Origin: an uncultured Candidatus Saccharibacteria bacterium
GTDB lineage: Bacteria > Patescibacteriota > Doudnabacteria > UBA920
Assembly: GCA_964473815.1 (NCBI GenBank)
Contig: CAYYQK010000004.1
Location: 68,493-132,492, forward strand
Length of the DNA: 64,000 bases
Reading direction: 5' to 3'
Of the stretch, positions 48,716-53,123 are shown piece by piece. The translations under genes and the position numbers were made by a program. Below the pieces are notes generated by a model, which saw only the letters and a list, made by a program, of their open reading frames with translations, was not told the DNA's origin and searched no databases. Each line of letters starts with the position of its first letter. Within the stretch, counting starts at the first letter, position 1.

Positions 48716-48802
48716 GCCGCGGTGGTGAAATTGGCATACACGTACGCTTCAGGTGCGTATGACCGCAAGGTCGTGAGGGTTCAAGTCCCTCCCGCGGCAC
48801 CA
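48716..48802 (+). tRNA. tRNA-Leu (anticodon CAG), long variable arm, CCA encoded
   Basis: Acceptor gccgcgg/ccgcggc, anticodon stem tacgc/gcgta with loop uuCAGgu, variable arm atgaccgcaaggtcgtg, T-arm agggttcaagtccct, then a-cca. Confidence 0.85.
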
Positions 48803-48814
48803 TCTAAATAAATC

Positions 48815-48848
48815 AAAAACCGCCGGTGTGGCGGTTTTATATTTTTAC
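48815..48848. terminator. bidirectional intrinsic terminator
   Basis: accgccggtgtggcggt + TTTTATATTTTT; A-tract upstream serves the convergent minus-strand gene. Confidence 0.7.
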
Positions 48849-49178
48849 TCCCTGACTTTTCAGATGTAGCTTTATTTTTTCTACGTCTTTCATGGTTGCT
48901 CGGATATCTTCGTCTGATCGTTTATCTAATTTAGTGACCTTATCTTTCACATCTTTCAAATCGATTTTGATTTCAGCTATCTCACCATCAACACGTGCGA
49001 ACCTAAAGTTCATTTCACTGCGCAATTCCGCAAGTTCTGCCTTGGTAGCGAGACCCTTCAAGTCGTCCTTTGTGGCCAGGCCCTTCAAGTCTTTTTTAGT
49101 GGCAAGACTTTTGAGTTCATCTTTGGTCGCGAGGGTCGCGAATTGCTCTATTAAAAATTCGGTAAGTTCTTTGTCCAT
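48837..49178 (-). CDS. coiled-coil protein with tandem 9-aa (27-bp) repeats LATK(D/K)(D/E)LKG
   Basis: …LATKDELKSLATKKDLKGLATKDDLKGLATKAELAEL… Extended -10 TGaTATAAT lies 6 nt before the ATG. Confidence 0.5.
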   Translation of the reverse strand: MDKELTEFLIEQFATLATKDELKSLATKKDLKGLATKDDLKGLATKAELAELRSEMNFRFARVDGEIAEIKIDLKDVKDKVTKLDKRSDEDIRATMKDVEKIKLHLKSQGVKI

Positions 49179-49281: not shown

Positions 49282-49311
49282 TTGACAAACTTCCCTGCCT
49301 CGTGCTATAAT
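49282..49311 (+). promoter_or_regulatory. consensus sigma70 promoter TTGACA-18-TATAAT upstream of rnj
   Basis: TTGACAaacttccctgcctcgtgcTATAAT. About 170-nt leader before the annotated rnj start. Confidence 0.65.
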
Positions 49312-49482
49312 CAATTTACAGTTTTCAAATGGCTGTTTATGTGCCGACAACAAGTCGGTTCAAACGTAAGCTCACATTTGGCAATTGTGACCAGAAAGGC
49401 GGCCCCGGAAGCCACTTTCCTCACAGAAATAAATATCAATTAAATAGGTTTTTGTATTGCCGCAAATTCCTGAACAAGAAAT

Positions 49483-51303
49483 ATGATAAGAAAACCTCTC
49501 GGGTCGAGTACCCGACCGGCGCGCCGAGTACCAACTTCAGGCTCTCGCCCCGCGCCCCGCTCAGTTGCTGACCGCGGCACAGATCGCGCTAATAGCCGTA
49601 TCACCGCTCCAACTGGCAACTCCAAAGCGACTTTGTCGCGCAACGTTCTTCGCGTAATCCCGCTCGGCGGTCTTGAAGAAGTCGGTGCCAACATGATGGC
49701 TTATGAATACGGCGATGACATTATCATCGTTGATGCTGGTTTTGCGTTTCCAGACGAAACCACTCCTGGTATTGACTACATCATCCCGGAAACAAAATAT
49801 TTGGAAGATCGCAAGAAAAATATTCGCGCGATGTTCATCACTCATGGACACATGGACCACATTGGTGCTATTCCCTACTTGCTTGCTAAGCTAGGTGATC
49901 CTCCAATTTACACCATGACTTTGTCTGCGGGTATGATCAAAAAGCGTTTGGAAGAATTTAACTTGCAAGGCCGCGTAAAGTTAAACGCGTTAAGCGTTGA
50001 TGACATGGTTCCTGCTGGAAATTTCCAAGTACGATTTTTCTCTGTGAACCACAACATTCCAGATTCTGTAGGTCTATCTATTAATACACCGATTGGTCAG
50101 ATCATTCACACTGGTGACTGGAAATTTGACCACACTCCAATTAACGAACGCGTCACCGACTTCCACCGCATTGCTACTTTTGGTAGCCAAGGTGTGCTGG
50201 CTTTGATGTCAGACTCTACCAACGCAACCAAACCTGGTTACTGTTTGTCTGAGCGTGAAATTGGAACTAGCATCGAACGAATTTTCTCCGAAAGCAAAGG
50301 CCGCATTATTTTTGCGAGCTTCTCTTCGTTGATTTCACGTATGCAACAAGTTATGGACTTTGCTGCCCAGCACAATCGTAAAGTGATTGTTACTGGTCGC
50401 TCTATGGTTAATACTCTAGAAACTGCGCTATCACTTGGATACCTCAAAATTCAGCCAAAAATTATTATCAAATCTGAACAAGCGAGTAAATATCCTGATA
50501 ACCAAATTCTGGTGTTAACCACAGGTGCGCAAGGTGAAGAAGCCTCACAGCTGGCCCGCATGTCGCGTGGCGAACATCGCTCTATTAAAATCAAAAAGGG
50601 TGATACAGTAGTGATTTCTTCATCCCCTATTCCTGGTAATGAACGCTCGATTGTGGCGGTTTTAGACAACTTAACTCGCCAAGGCGCAACTGTTATTTAC
50701 AACAAAGTTTTGGACATTCACACCTCTGGGCACGCTCAGCAGGAAGAATTAAAGATGATGATGCAGTTAACCAAGCCAAAATATTTTGTTCCGATTCATG
50801 GTGAGCACCACATGTTGGCTGCGCACTCGAAGTTGGCGCAAAGCATTGGTCTTGCCGAAAATAACTGTTTTGTTTTGGAAAATGGCTCGGTATTAGAATT
50901 TAATGCTAATGGCGAAGCTAAAGTCTTAAATGAAAAAGTTGAATCCGGTTACGTCTTCGTTGACGGTTTGGGTGTTGGTGATGTTGGTGAAGTTGTAATT
51001 CGCGATCGTCAGGTAATGGCACAAGATGGAATGTTTGTAATTATTTCTACGGTTGATCGTAGCAATGGTAAGCTAACTTCCCCACCAGAAATTCTGTCGC
51101 GTGGATTCGTGTATATGAAAAACAATGATGATCTCATTCGTGAAGTTAAACACGAAATTCGCAAGATGATCGAAAATACTGGGGGCAAAGGTGAAGCGAA
51201 CTATGCGGACATTCGTCAGCAGATTCGCGACAGCGTTGGCGAATATCTTTTCCAAAAGACTCAGCGTCGTCCAATGATCCTGCCAGTTATTATTGAAGTT
51301 TAA
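49483..51303 (+). CDS. rnj: ribonuclease J (metallo-β-lactamase / β-CASP) with an Arg/Pro/Ser-rich N-terminal extension
   Basis: IPLGGLEEVGANMMAYEYGDD N-terminus, HGHMDHIGAIPYL zinc motif, β-CASP and C-terminal domains. About 60-aa low-complexity GC-rich N-terminal region; true start uncertain. Confidence 0.8.
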   Translation: MIRKPLGSSTRPARRVPTSGSRPAPRSVADRGTDRANSRITAPTGNSKATLSRNVLRVIPLGGLEEVGANMMAYEYGDDIIIVDAGFAFPDETTPGIDYIIPETKYLEDRKKNIRAMFITHGHMDHIGAIPYLLAKLGDPPIYTMTLSAGMIKKRLEEFNLQGRVKLNALSVDDMVPAGNFQVRFFSVNHNIPDSVGLSINTPIGQIIHTGDWKFDHTPINERVTDFHRIATFGSQGVLALMSDSTNATKPGYCLSEREIGTSIERIFSESKGRIIFASFSSLISRMQQVMDFAAQHNRKVIVTGRSMVNTLETALSLGYLKIQPKIIIKSEQASKYPDNQILVLTTGAQGEEASQLARMSRGEHRSIKIKKGDTVVISSSPIPGNERSIVAVLDNLTRQGATVIYNKVLDIHTSGHAQQEELKMMMQLTKPKYFVPIHGEHHMLAAHSKLAQSIGLAENNCFVLENGSVLEFNANGEAKVLNEKVESGYVFVDGLGVGDVGEVVIRDRQVMAQDGMFVIISTVDRSNGKLTSPPEILSRGFVYMKNNDDLIREVKHEIRKMIENTGGKGEANYADIRQQIRDSVGEYLFQKTQRRPMILPVIIEV

Positions 51304-51419
51304 TTGATAGGCGGAAAAGTTTTCCGCCCTTCAAGTGCACATCAAGAAAGTTTATTGTACTTACTAGTTCGCAAAATTATTGATAGAGACTGAAGTAAAA
51401 CAAAGGCTTTCACAAAAAG

Positions 51420-51470
51420 AAGAGCGGCGGACAACATTTGCAAATTGCAATTGTTGCCGCCGCTTTTTTG
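51420..51470. terminator. bidirectional intrinsic terminator (long GC-clamped hairpin)
   Basis: gcggcggacaacatttgcaaattgcaattgttgccgccgc flanked by an A-tract and a T-tract, giving U-tracts in both orientations. Confidence 0.7.
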
Positions 51471-51473
51471 TTA

Positions 51474-51671
51474 TTAGCGATCGAAGCCATGACGGTGTTC
51501 GAATCCGTAACTATCCTCCTGAAGATCCGGGACAGAACCTGCGCCGGCGTATGCATTCCCAGACATGGGGCAAACCTCAGACGAGGTGGAACTGACATCG
51601 TGGTTCTCGACTGTGTCGTCCGGTCTCAAGGAAGTTCGATTACCGCATTGCGGACATGTAACATTTCTCAT
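51474..51671 (-). CDS. small Cys-motif protein, paralog C (65 aa)
   Basis: ACGGAG-5-ATG. MRNVTCPQCGNRTSLRPDDTVENH… shares the CxxCG-x5/6-RPDxTVExH block with paralog A; the codon differences are synonymous (AGG/AGA, CCT/CCG, GAT/GAC, ACC/ACA, GTG/GTC, GAA/GAG, CAT/CAC). 14 nt after the stop of paralog B. Confidence 0.6.
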   Translation of the reverse strand: MRNVTCPQCGNRTSLRPDDTVENHDVSSTSSEVCPMSGNAYAGAGSVPDLQEDSYGFEHRHGFDR

Positions 51672-51685
51672 ATGCACTCCGTTGT

Positions 51686-51868
51686 TTAATGGTTTTCATC
51701 AAGGATGCGCAAGGCGAAAAAATCTTCGCCACCCAAGCAACACGGTTTGTTATCACTTGGTTGCGGATGCGGTGGAATGGTTGCGGATTTTTTATCATCC
51801 TCAACGTGAATATCGAGATTCAAGATCTCGGTACAAAACAGGCTCGGACAATCTCTTTGTTCAATCAT
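51686..51868 (-). CDS. small Cys-motif protein, paralog B (60 aa)
   Basis: GAGAGGGGAT-aaat-ATG. MIEQRDCPSLFCTEILNLDIHVEDD…NKPCCLGGE… shares NKPC with paralog A. Internal start chosen (the ORF track extends to 51931). Confidence 0.5.
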   Translation of the reverse strand: MIEQRDCPSLFCTEILNLDIHVEDDKKSATIPPHPQPSDNKPCCLGGEDFFALRILDENH

Positions 51869-51893
51869 ATTTATCCCCTCTCTAAATGTAGAA

Positions 51894-52106
51894 CTAGAAT
51901 GGCTCGCCACCAGGTGACGGCTGTGCGTCACACGGAGGCATTGAATTGACCCCTTGTATTGCTAACTCGGCTGAGTTCGCCGGATTTTTCTTTCGACCAT
52001 CACACGGTTTGTTGTTACGCTGATCGAGATGCTCTTCCACGGTTTGATCAGGCCTAACACTCAACCCGTTCTTACCGCACACTGCACAGACTCCTAAATA
52101 GGCCAT
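51894..52106 (-). CDS. small Cys-motif protein, paralog A (70 aa)
   Basis: AAGGGGGT-7-ATG. MAYLGVCAVCGKNGLSVRPDQTVEEHLDQRNNKPCDGRKK…PPCDAQP. First gene of a three-gene operon. Confidence 0.6.
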   Translation of the reverse strand: MAYLGVCAVCGKNGLSVRPDQTVEEHLDQRNNKPCDGRKKNPANSAELAIQGVNSMPPCDAQPSPGGEPF

Positions 52107-52121
52107 GGTGTCTACCCCCTT

Positions 52122-52139
52122 TGGTGAATTTATTCACCA
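52122..52139. promoter_or_regulatory. 18-bp perfect palindrome TGGTGAAT-TT-ATTCACCA (candidate operator) at the TSS of the small-protein operon and over the -35 of trpS
   Basis: Minus-strand promoter: TTGACA is the reverse complement of 52163-52168, then an 18-nt spacer, then TAAACT as the reverse complement of 52139-52144. The palindrome starts at the -10 and covers the predicted TSS. Confidence 0.5.
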
Positions 52140-52169
52140 GTTTAGCTGATTTTATGCTAAAATGTCAAC

Positions 52170-53123
52170 ATGGAAACAATACTTTCAGGCGTTCAGGCCA
52201 CAGGCCGAATGCATATCGGTAACTATTTGGGGGCGCTGAAGCAATTCGTAGACATTCAAAATGAAGGCAAATTGCAATGCTATTTTTTCGTCGCTGATTT
52301 ACACGCCTTAACTGTGCCGCGCGAACCAAAAAAACTTCGCCAGGATACTTTAGAAGTGGTGGCAGAATATATTGCTGCTGGTCTCGACCCAAAAAAGTCA
52401 GTAATTTTTATCCAAAATCATGTTTTAGAACATGCTGAACTGGCTTGGATTTTTGATTGTCTCATTTCGGTTGGGGAACTCGAACGAATGACTCAGTTTA
52501 AAGACAAGGGCGGCGGCAATGCTGGCTTACTCACCTATCCGGTTCTTATGGCAGCTGACATTTTATTATACAAACCAAACTTTGTGCCAGTTGGTGAAGA
52601 CCAGGTGCAACATATTGAACTCACTCGCATCATTGCGCGTAAGTTTAACAATCAATTTGGAAAAGTTTTCCCAGAACCAAAACCTTTTGTCCGCAAACCT
52701 CTGCGCTTAATGAGCCTGAAAAATCCATCAAAGAAGATGAGCAAGACTGGCGATGATCCCATTTACATGGACGACACGCCAAGCGATGTTGAAGCAAAGT
52801 TAAAAAAAGCCGTGACTGCAAGCGGCGGTGAAGGTGGCGCAGGTGTAGAAAATTTGATGTTCCTTCTCGAACAATTCGGCAGCAAAGAAAATGTTGGCCA
52901 ATTCCGCGGAGCAATTAAGGACGGTTCAATTCGCTATAGCGATTTAAAGATGGAACTCGCCCACTCAATTGCTGATTACTTTGCAGACTTCCGTAAGCGC
53001 AAAAAAGAATTGCTCAATGATAAAGCTGGGTTGGCAGAAATTCTGGCAGATGGCGCAGAGCGAGCCCGGGAGATCGCCCACGAAACAATGCTTGAAGTCA
53101 AACAAAAAACCGGCCTGCTATAA
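52170..53123 (+). CDS. trpS: tryptophanyl-tRNA synthetase
   Basis: TGRMHIGNYLGAL (HIGH-type) and KMSKTGDD (KMSKS). TGcTAAAAT lies 6 nt before the ATG. Confidence 0.9.
   Translation: METILSGVQATGRMHIGNYLGALKQFVDIQNEGKLQCYFFVADLHALTVPREPKKLRQDTLEVVAEYIAAGLDPKKSVIFIQNHVLEHAELAWIFDCLISVGELERMTQFKDKGGGNAGLLTYPVLMAADILLYKPNFVPVGEDQVQHIELTRIIARKFNNQFGKVFPEPKPFVRKPLRLMSLKNPSKKMSKTGDDPIYMDDTPSDVEAKLKKAVTASGGEGGAGVENLMFLLEQFGSKENVGQFRGAIKDGSIRYSDLKMELAHSIADYFADFRKRKKELLNDKAGLAEILADGAERAREIAHETMLEVKQKTGLL

Follow-up and report, generated by a model that had tools for sequence, protein, structure and literature searches.

Three small genes between RNase J and trpS

The window analysed here is a 64-kb stretch of DNA that its TrpRS relatives assign to Candidatus Doudnabacteria (CPR/Patescibacteria), with the best loci encoding TrpRS proteins of 58-82% identity. 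Within it, three small open reading frames lie in tandem on the minus strand: gene A (51894..52106, 70 aa), gene B (51686..51868, 60 aa) and gene C (51474..51671, 65 aa), separated by gaps of 25 nt (A to B) and 14 nt (B to C). The array is convergent with the gene for RNase J (49483..51303, plus strand) and divergent from trpS (52170..53123, plus strand). Each ATG is preceded on the minus strand by a Shine-Dalgarno sequence (SD): AAGGGGG 8 nt upstream of gene A (52115..52121), GAGAGGGG 6 nt upstream of gene B (51875..51882) and GGAG 5 nt upstream of gene C (51677..51680). An earlier, sequence-only reading of this DNA had described three minus-strand frames 14-25 nt apart, each with a purine-rich SD, and the coordinates, spacing and SDs were all found as described. 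The neighbours called over ~6 kb in each direction have housekeeping functions or are small ORFs that lack a Pfam match; they encode RNase J, TrpRS, DUF5684, PMM, YchF, S6, SBP and SecG. An Rfam scan of the interval from 47 to 56 kb returned one tRNA and nothing else.

Gene A is a called gene in public assemblies. For gene B, one gene caller reported an 86-aa ORF on the antisense strand in its place. The codon-position composition of gene B (GC1/GC2/GC3 0.53/0.35/0.43) agrees with the coding pattern of the genome (0.54/0.38/0.41), whereas that of the antisense ORF is unlike it. The region is richer in GC than its surroundings, as had been remarked (48.7% compared with 42.9% in the window, at the 98th percentile of equal-sized windows), and both the GC and the GC3 of genes A and C lie ~2-3 standard deviations above the genome norm, the excess of their GC3 over that of the long genes being ~2.5-3 standard deviations. 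All three proteins are acidic, with net charges of -1, -7 and -5 for A, B and C respectively, and none of them contains a signal or leader-like segment.

A promoter for the array was identified on the minus strand at 52139..52168, consisting of TTGACA (52168..52163), an 18-nt spacer and TAAACT (52144..52139), with a score of 10/12. Three promoter-like sites were found in the region where 2.5 were expected, indicating that by its sequence alone the element is no better than chance. The position of the element was then compared in six sister loci anchored on TTGACA. TTGACA-18-TAATAT occurs at the same place in four of them (L002, L003, L005 and L011) and variants of it in the other two (L004 and L013), and in each of the six the TTGACA is followed downstream by a GGAGG site and then by the first minus-strand gene. 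The promoter that the sequence-only reading had assigned to the unit is thus present and kept in six sister genomes, although it stands at chance level in the window alone.

Read in the other direction, this stretch gives TGnTAAAAT-GTCAA, which is an extended -10 element. For trpS this places TGCTAAAAT (52155..52163) 6 nt before the ATG at 52170, so that the extended -10 and start together span 52155..52172 on the plus strand. A -10-like hexamer 6-7 nt upstream of the trpS ATG, with no SD, was observed in most of 14 related loci, and the trpS mRNA is apparently leaderless. Control of trpS by a T-box or an attenuator was rejected because of this apparent lack of a leader. The promoters of the array and of trpS, reading outward, share the same ~40 bp, such that the -35 of the array falls between the -10 and the ATG of trpS while the -35 position of trpS falls over the start of the array. 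With an overlap this complete, polymerase would probably be able to occupy only one promoter at a time, and mutually exclusive occupancy would couple expression of the small genes inversely to that of trpS.

Downstream of gene C, a bidirectional intrinsic terminator (51415..51472, both strands) is common to the array and the convergent RNase J gene. It consists of an inverted repeat with T-runs after the stem on both strands, and its hairpin has a predicted energy of -35.9 kcal/mol (z -6.9), in agreement with the proposal that a hairpin with U-tracts on both strands ends the unit. Taken together, these elements show that the stretch from promoter to terminator constitutes a predicted, transcribable three-gene operon.

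A Cys2-His-Cys module shared with sister genomes

Proteins A and C have in common the block C-x-x-C-G...R-P-D-x-T-V-E-x-H (BLASTP E 2e-5). Within it they agree at 12 of 20 aligned residues, and the codons differ for 9 of these 12. Over the same 20 codons, identity at the first, second and third positions was 11, 16 and 3, indicating that conservation acts at the level of protein and that the block is not a DNA repeat. Judged by this pattern, A and C are old duplicates kept by protein-level selection, much as had been argued from the predominance of synonymous differences between them. The motif NKPC, which had been cited as common to A and B, is indeed found in both, but it carries less weight as evidence because the underlying DNA is identical over 12 nt.

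The repeated unit is a module of ~40 residues in which a CxxC knuckle is followed by a short beta-hairpin, an invariant His, a variable loop and then Cys-x-x-Gly, and it can be written as C-x2(4)-C, 13-16 residues, H, 9-25 residues, C-x-x-G. In protein A the ligands are C7-x2-C10, H26 and C35-x-G; in protein C they are C6-x2-C9, H24 and C34, followed by a YGFEHRHGFDR tail; and protein B contains a divergent candidate module with C7-x4-C12, H34 and C43-C44-x-G-G. Alignments of 12 and 15 sequences, in which A, B and C were included with proteins from sister genomes, contained four invariant columns only: Cys, Cys, His and Cys (C6, C9, H24 and C34). The CxxC motif by which these proteins had initially been characterized is therefore present as the knuckle, but the full motif is Cys2-His-Cys (C2HC).

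To recover the module from the window, a hidden Markov model (HMM) seeded exclusively with modules from other genomes was searched against all 1113 six-frame ORFs. Protein C ranked first (E 3e-7) and protein A second (E 9e-5), while B was not recovered among these ORFs (E 16). Protein B fits the C/C/H/C pattern, with all four ligand types present at irregular spacing, and its membership of the family and its paralogy are proposed on pattern only. Of the three paralogs that the sequence-only reading had put forward, A and C are thus borne out by the HMM, and B is a candidate by its pattern. A and C belong to a real, fast-diverging and uncatalogued protein family, and no further copies of it were detected in the window or in any of the loci searched.

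The tail of protein C (YGFEHRHGFDR) matches YGFPARHGFDR of an ortholog in L008 (P0012) and resembles the ..NYG..H...FHWEPGHH.. tail of fused proteins described below, indicating that C is equivalent to the C-terminal module that is conserved there. The module of A arose from that of C by duplication within the genome.

Small proteins with the same ligand pattern are encoded in the same slot and on the same strand in seven related loci. Single proteins were found in L002 (71 aa), L005 (86 aa) and L011 (46 aa), two proteins encoded by separate genes in L008 (55 aa and 71 aa), and proteins carrying two modules in L003 (119 aa), L009 (123 aa) and L010 (141 aa). An exception is L007, where the family protein (88 aa) is encoded ~2 kb upstream of trpS and other genes intervene. 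Five further contigs reached via protein matches (L085-L089) have the order trpS, family gene, RNase J, as far as each contig extends. The module therefore occurs in this slot singly, in separate adjacent genes or as two copies fused in one protein. The content of the slot otherwise differs between relatives and consists of various orphan genes, for which a Pfam scan gave no match; in the deeper relatives L014 and L016 the slot is empty. These comparisons show that the family is limited to a single chromosomal slot within a subclade of Doudnabacteria.

Between orthologs of the fused form, dN/dS was 0.10 in one pair and 0.07 in another, and by this measure strong purifying selection acts on the fused proteins. 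A, B and C themselves are all singletons without a close ortholog, and the values apply to the fused form. The sequence-only reading had raised the prospect that homologs might always prove to be fragments of a longer, disrupted gene. Many homologs are indeed longer, two-module fusions, but these are intact and under selection, and stand-alone single-module genes exist (L002, L008 and L011), which argues for fission or duplication and not for decay. The data show that the operon is a fission and duplication variant of the two-module protein kept in sister genomes. The core of the original description, a compact operon of paralogous small Cys-motif proteins under protein-level selection, is genuine.

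Wider relatives and known zinc-binding folds

Scans of A, B, C and their relatives with Pfam, NCBIfam and PADLOC returned nothing above noise, and the PADLOC anti-phage defence models gave no match at E<=0.1, consistent with the earlier statement that the proteins fall in no recognised family. Each of A, B and C forms a singleton cluster among ~15 billion proteins, the only match to C among 5.8 billion word-indexed proteins was C itself, and none of the three has a close ortholog.

More distant relatives were detected with profiles. Against the PHROG families of phage proteins, C gave a weak match to phrog_5559 (E 0.0012) and A and B gave none, and the modules match only PHROGs without an assigned function (5559, 6601, 9420 and 2433). 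When 1.84 billion representatives were searched exhaustively with HMMER and the family profile, 29 proteins reached E<1e-3, among them further two-module Doudnabacteria proteins as well as remote multi-module proteins from phages or cells. The remote modules follow the consensus C-x2-C-x3-V-x-L-x3-G-x4-H-x(n)-C-x-G-S-G. They include a 457-aa protein from a phage-like contig, a three-module protein in a cellular context, and two fusions of N-terminal modules to a Cas4-like phage exonuclease (phrog_1674), the best phage match of these fusions being Streptomyces phage Dagobah. When the Doudnabacteria modules and the remote ones were compared profile to profile, the probability of a match was 97.7% (E 1.8e-12), a value that is partly circular and is supportive rather than independent because the remote set had been chosen by profile and regular expression. 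A tblastn search of 50,697 phage records with C gave no match, scans of IMG/VR with C and the fused ortholog P0007 gave no relatives, the alignments were too divergent for pattern scanning, and no close relatives of the family were found in IMG/VR or INPHARED.

The proteins of PHROGs 5559, 6601 and 9420 and the N-terminal modules of the Dagobah-type Cas4-like exonucleases have the same module consensus, often in tandem arrays. In contrast, the Doudnabacteria proteins are chromosomal and syntenic, mostly lack the GSG, and have an aromatic/His tail of their own. By sequence, the nearest relatives of the family appear to be these phage PHROG families, and the relationship is remote.

AlphaFold2 models consist of short beta-hairpin modules with disordered tails. 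Model confidence was pLDDT ~76-88 for the modules, with ~76-81 for the module of C and ~85 for the N-terminal module of a fused ortholog. A Foldseek search of the PDB with the model of C gave no match at E<=0.001, and the best hit of a sequence profile search of the PDB was a consensus C2H2 finger (1mey), which is weak (E 0.006). C2H2 zinc fingers resemble the module in having C-x2-C followed by ~12-15 residues and a His; the module differs in that there is no second His 3-5 residues further on, no predicted helix, and a spacing of 14-15 instead of 12.

A zinc ribbon is built from two CxxC-type knuckles, each on a beta-hairpin, that together supply four ligands. The module has the first knuckle and hairpin, modelled as beta strands, and its second ligand pair consists of the His and the distant Cys, without a knuckle. 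Classical zinc ribbons and rubredoxin-like knuckle proteins (LysW, YacG, ribosomal proteins and RNA polymerase subunit P) are likewise small and share the N-terminal CxxC and the beta-hairpin, and LysW-type, YacG-type and similar chains were among those matches of the fold and sequence searches that fell short of significance. A LysW-type carrier was rejected on account of those non-significant matches and the lack of a lysine-biosynthesis context, and paralogs of ribosomal zinc proteins were rejected in view of the lack of an NCBIfam match. Rubredoxin has two CxxCG knuckles ~30 residues apart, and the C4 zinc finger of DksA/TraR has the form C-x2-C-x17-C-x2-C together with a coiled coil. Both assignments had been set aside in the sequence-only reading, and rightly so: the second knuckle of rubredoxin and the spacing of DksA/TraR are absent, there is no Pfam match to either, and for DksA/TraR there is no NCBIfam match.

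A literature search on small zinc-ribbon proteins of CPR bacteria returned nothing specific. In haloarchaea, one-domain zinc-finger micro-proteins of <70 aa (C(P)XCG proteins from Haloferax volcanii; Brz of Halobacterium) have diverse regulatory or adaptor roles (PMC6562870, PMC11241148, PMC2253796), and the zinc sites predicted in C(P)XCG micro-proteins in some cases carry no metal or a metal other than zinc (PMC11241148). The proteins described here are similar in being encoded by small stand-alone genes and in having a single small domain that opens with such a knuckle, as seen in CPQCG of C and CAVCG of A. However, the archaeal proteins contain two C(P)XCG motifs (Cys4), whereas here one knuckle is followed by a His and a distant Cys; with one CxxCG in A, one in C and none in B, the three proteins fall outside the haloarchaeal C(P)XCG definition. 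Moreover, the host of A, B and C is a bacterium (CPR), its genes are in tandem or fused, and no sequence homology to the archaeal proteins was detected. The archaeal one-domain zinc-finger micro-proteins offer the nearest functional analogy. Taken together, these comparisons indicate that the family is new and uncatalogued while its kind, small zinc-ribbon-type micro-proteins, is familiar.

A proposed adaptor function and its alternatives

By analogy, A, B and C are most likely structural-zinc adaptor micro-proteins that act together. Each module would fold around one structural Zn2+, and since equivalent modules are fused in sister genomes the three proteins are likely to co-operate, so that three acidic micro-proteins may work as one multi-module unit. 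Their partner would be a macromolecule, more likely a protein or a single-stranded nucleic acid than an operator duplex, and it may be contacted both by the variable loops between His and Cys and by the YGF..RHGFDR tail at the C-terminus. As a whole, the account that we regard as more likely than not is that of a three-gene C2HC operon whose putative zinc modules form a joint partner-binding unit and whose promoter would compete with that of trpS.

An alternative is that the operon is an accessory cassette derived from a phage or mobile element, with a function such as anti-defence, defence or host takeover, which occupies a hypervariable slot behind a conserved promoter. The remote homologs in phage-like contigs and phage proteins (PHROGs 5559, 6601 and 9420), the fusion of the module to the phrog_1674 exonuclease with its match to phage Dagobah, the elevated GC and GC3 of A and C, and a slot whose genes vary among relatives and which is empty in deeper ones are all consistent with such an origin. 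On the other hand, the slot lacks a flanking integrase, repeats or tRNA, PADLOC and the two viral databases gave neither a defence match nor a close relative, and synteny across many genomes combined with purifying selection has the appearance of vertical inheritance. We therefore consider a cassette of this type unlikely, with some of the evidence continuing to speak for it.

The sequence-only reading had instead envisaged autoregulation by zinc-ribbon DNA binders acting on a palindromic operator. In this case A, B and/or C would be repressors that bind an inverted repeat at 52122..52139, TGGTGAAT-NN-ATTCACCA, and silence the operon together with trpS. The repeat had been described as a perfect palindrome of 18 bp; it exists, but perfection fails at its centre, as two 8-nt arms flank 2 non-symmetric nucleotides. 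It lies exactly over the predicted start of transcription and 5′ end of the operon and over the -35 position of trpS, as had been claimed, and it is the sole copy in the 64-kb window, both of which would suit an operator. When matches were allowed up to 3 mismatches, 29 of 100 shuffles contained at least one, and inverted repeats with comparable 8-bp arms are common in the window (18 compared with ~8 expected). The co-occurrence of the palindrome with small CxxC genes in relatives, which had been suggested as a check, was not observed: the repeat was sought in 80 other loci and found in none, the sequence at that position being unrelated, even though the promoter is kept at related family loci. 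As RNA, the repeat would form a 7-bp 5′ hairpin, and the 46-nt leader shows no unusual stability (z -0.9). Furthermore, the net charges of the three proteins are unusual for binders of duplex DNA. The operator model is disfavoured because of this acidity, the lack of operator conservation and the lack of a match to any DNA-binding family, and we judge it to have little chance of being correct.

It could also be argued that the ORFs, or at least B, are the decaying remains of a gene that once encoded two fused modules, or are spacer DNA without coding function. Consistent with this, many homologs are longer two-module proteins, B was missed by the independent HMM, its ligands are irregularly spaced, the ORF antisense to B was the choice of one gene caller, and A, B and C are all singletons. 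Yet every ORF has its own ATG with an SD at canonical spacing, all three proteins retain the complete C/C/H/C ligand set, stand-alone single-module genes occur in three sister loci, and the codon-position GC of B fits that of coding DNA. The divergence of A and C at third positions and their conservation at second positions likewise indicate long-term selection. Pseudogene decay is unlikely for A and C, and the reading in which at least B is a remnant or spacer is very improbable.

Finally, the notion that three small tandem Cys-containing ORFs might encode precursors of Cys-rich ribosomally made peptides (RiPPs) or an unmodified secreted peptide set, the latter having been a candidate of the sequence-only reading, can be practically dismissed, as A, B and C have no signal sequence or leader-like segment, their conserved knuckle, hairpin, His and Cys form the pattern of a folded domain and not of leader and core, and the genes called within ~6 kb on either side include no radical-SAM enzyme or other maturase, as originally noted, and no cyclase, protease or transporter.

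Returning to adaptor micro-proteins that act jointly, a bolder extension combines them with the phage connection, and we regard it as a long shot. Here the gap between RNase J and trpS in this subclade would be a dedicated cassette slot for quickly reshuffled, modular C2HC micro-proteins of phage ancestry, expressed from a conserved promoter that is mutually exclusive with the leaderless one of trpS and acting on a core RNA- or DNA-processing enzyme or on a host or phage. Possible targets would be RNase J or a nuclease (compare the Cas4-like exonuclease fusions of phages), or the host or phage of the episymbiont. If this were true, the proteins would represent a new class of bacterial micro-protein regulator.

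Neither the operon nor the family overturns current understanding. The Cys2-His-Cys module lies outside Pfam and NCBIfam, and its definition would annotate many hypothetical proteins; it also appears to link chromosomal genes of CPR bacteria to widespread phage proteins. The divergent promoters, which overlap fully and one of which is apparently leaderless, provide a neat case for the study of promoter competition in CPR bacteria. These bacteria have tiny genomes, and an orphan micro-protein family kept under purifying selection in one of their subclades offers a concrete case of functional 'dark' micro-proteins.

Surroundings of RNase J

The conserved TTGACA-18-TATAAT promoter at 49282..49311 lies upstream of the plus-strand RNase J gene (49483..51303), and the upstream region as a whole (49282..49482, plus strand) consists of this promoter followed by a leader of approximately 165 nt. 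Within the leader, the 18-nt motif GGCGGCCCCGGAAGCCAC (49398..49415) is invariant across five genomes, and a long hairpin is predicted, supported by a small number of compensatory changes. Comparison of the leader with Rfam returned no match. The region may encode a small RNA or act as a leader through which rnj regulates itself. At the other end of the gene, directly 3′ of the RNase J stop, a second inverted repeat (51290..51348, core GCGGAAAAGTTTTCCGC at 51311..51327) is distinct from the bidirectional terminator at 51415..51472. Farther upstream, a plus-strand tRNA gene (48716..48799; Rfam, 51.7 bits) is adjoined by a minus-strand ORF of 113 amino acids (48837..49178), which contains coiled-coil-like repeats of the KDLKGLATK type and falls into no assigned family.

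The trpS start

Reading of the start region of trpS (52155..52172, plus strand) and comparison with related loci (L002-L014) showed that the extended -10 element TGCTAAAAT ends 6 nt 5′ of the trpS ATG in the window, where no Shine-Dalgarno sequence precedes this ATG. Of 14 related loci from Doudnabacteria, most have a -10-like hexamer 6-7 nt ahead of this start codon. From this arrangement, the trpS mRNA appears to be leaderless and translated as such.

Relatives of the zinc-ribbon genes and turnover at the RNase J-trpS slot

Remote proteins matched by the family profile (P0021 and P0034) and a locus of Streptomyces phage Dagobah (MT711977.1, 28815..30419) carry at least three C2HC (Cys2-His-Cys) modules fused N-terminally to a phage exonuclease of the Cas4-like/phrog_1674 type; the majority of related exonucleases from actinophages are without C2HC modules. 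Several sister genomes encode a protein of 119-124 amino acids ahead of the zinc-ribbon gene or genes (L008, 5530..5895, minus strand; L010, 5493..5867, minus strand; L086, 2797..3156), and by eye the N-terminus of the L008 protein resembles that of its L010 counterpart, as if the two were related. The gene for this protein is absent from the window.

The RNase J-trpS slot, beneath the same divergent promoter, carries unrelated orphan genes in some of the sister genomes, encoding 113-178 amino acids (L004, 5564..5905; L005, 4882..5940; L006, 5474..5893; L013, 5400..5936); a Pfam scan of these genes returned no match. In two deeper relatives (L014 and L016) trpS directly follows RNase J and the slot is empty. 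Because orphan genes occupy some sister slots and these deeper relatives have none, the RNase J-trpS slot has the look of a cassette site that is specific to the lineage and turns over fast.
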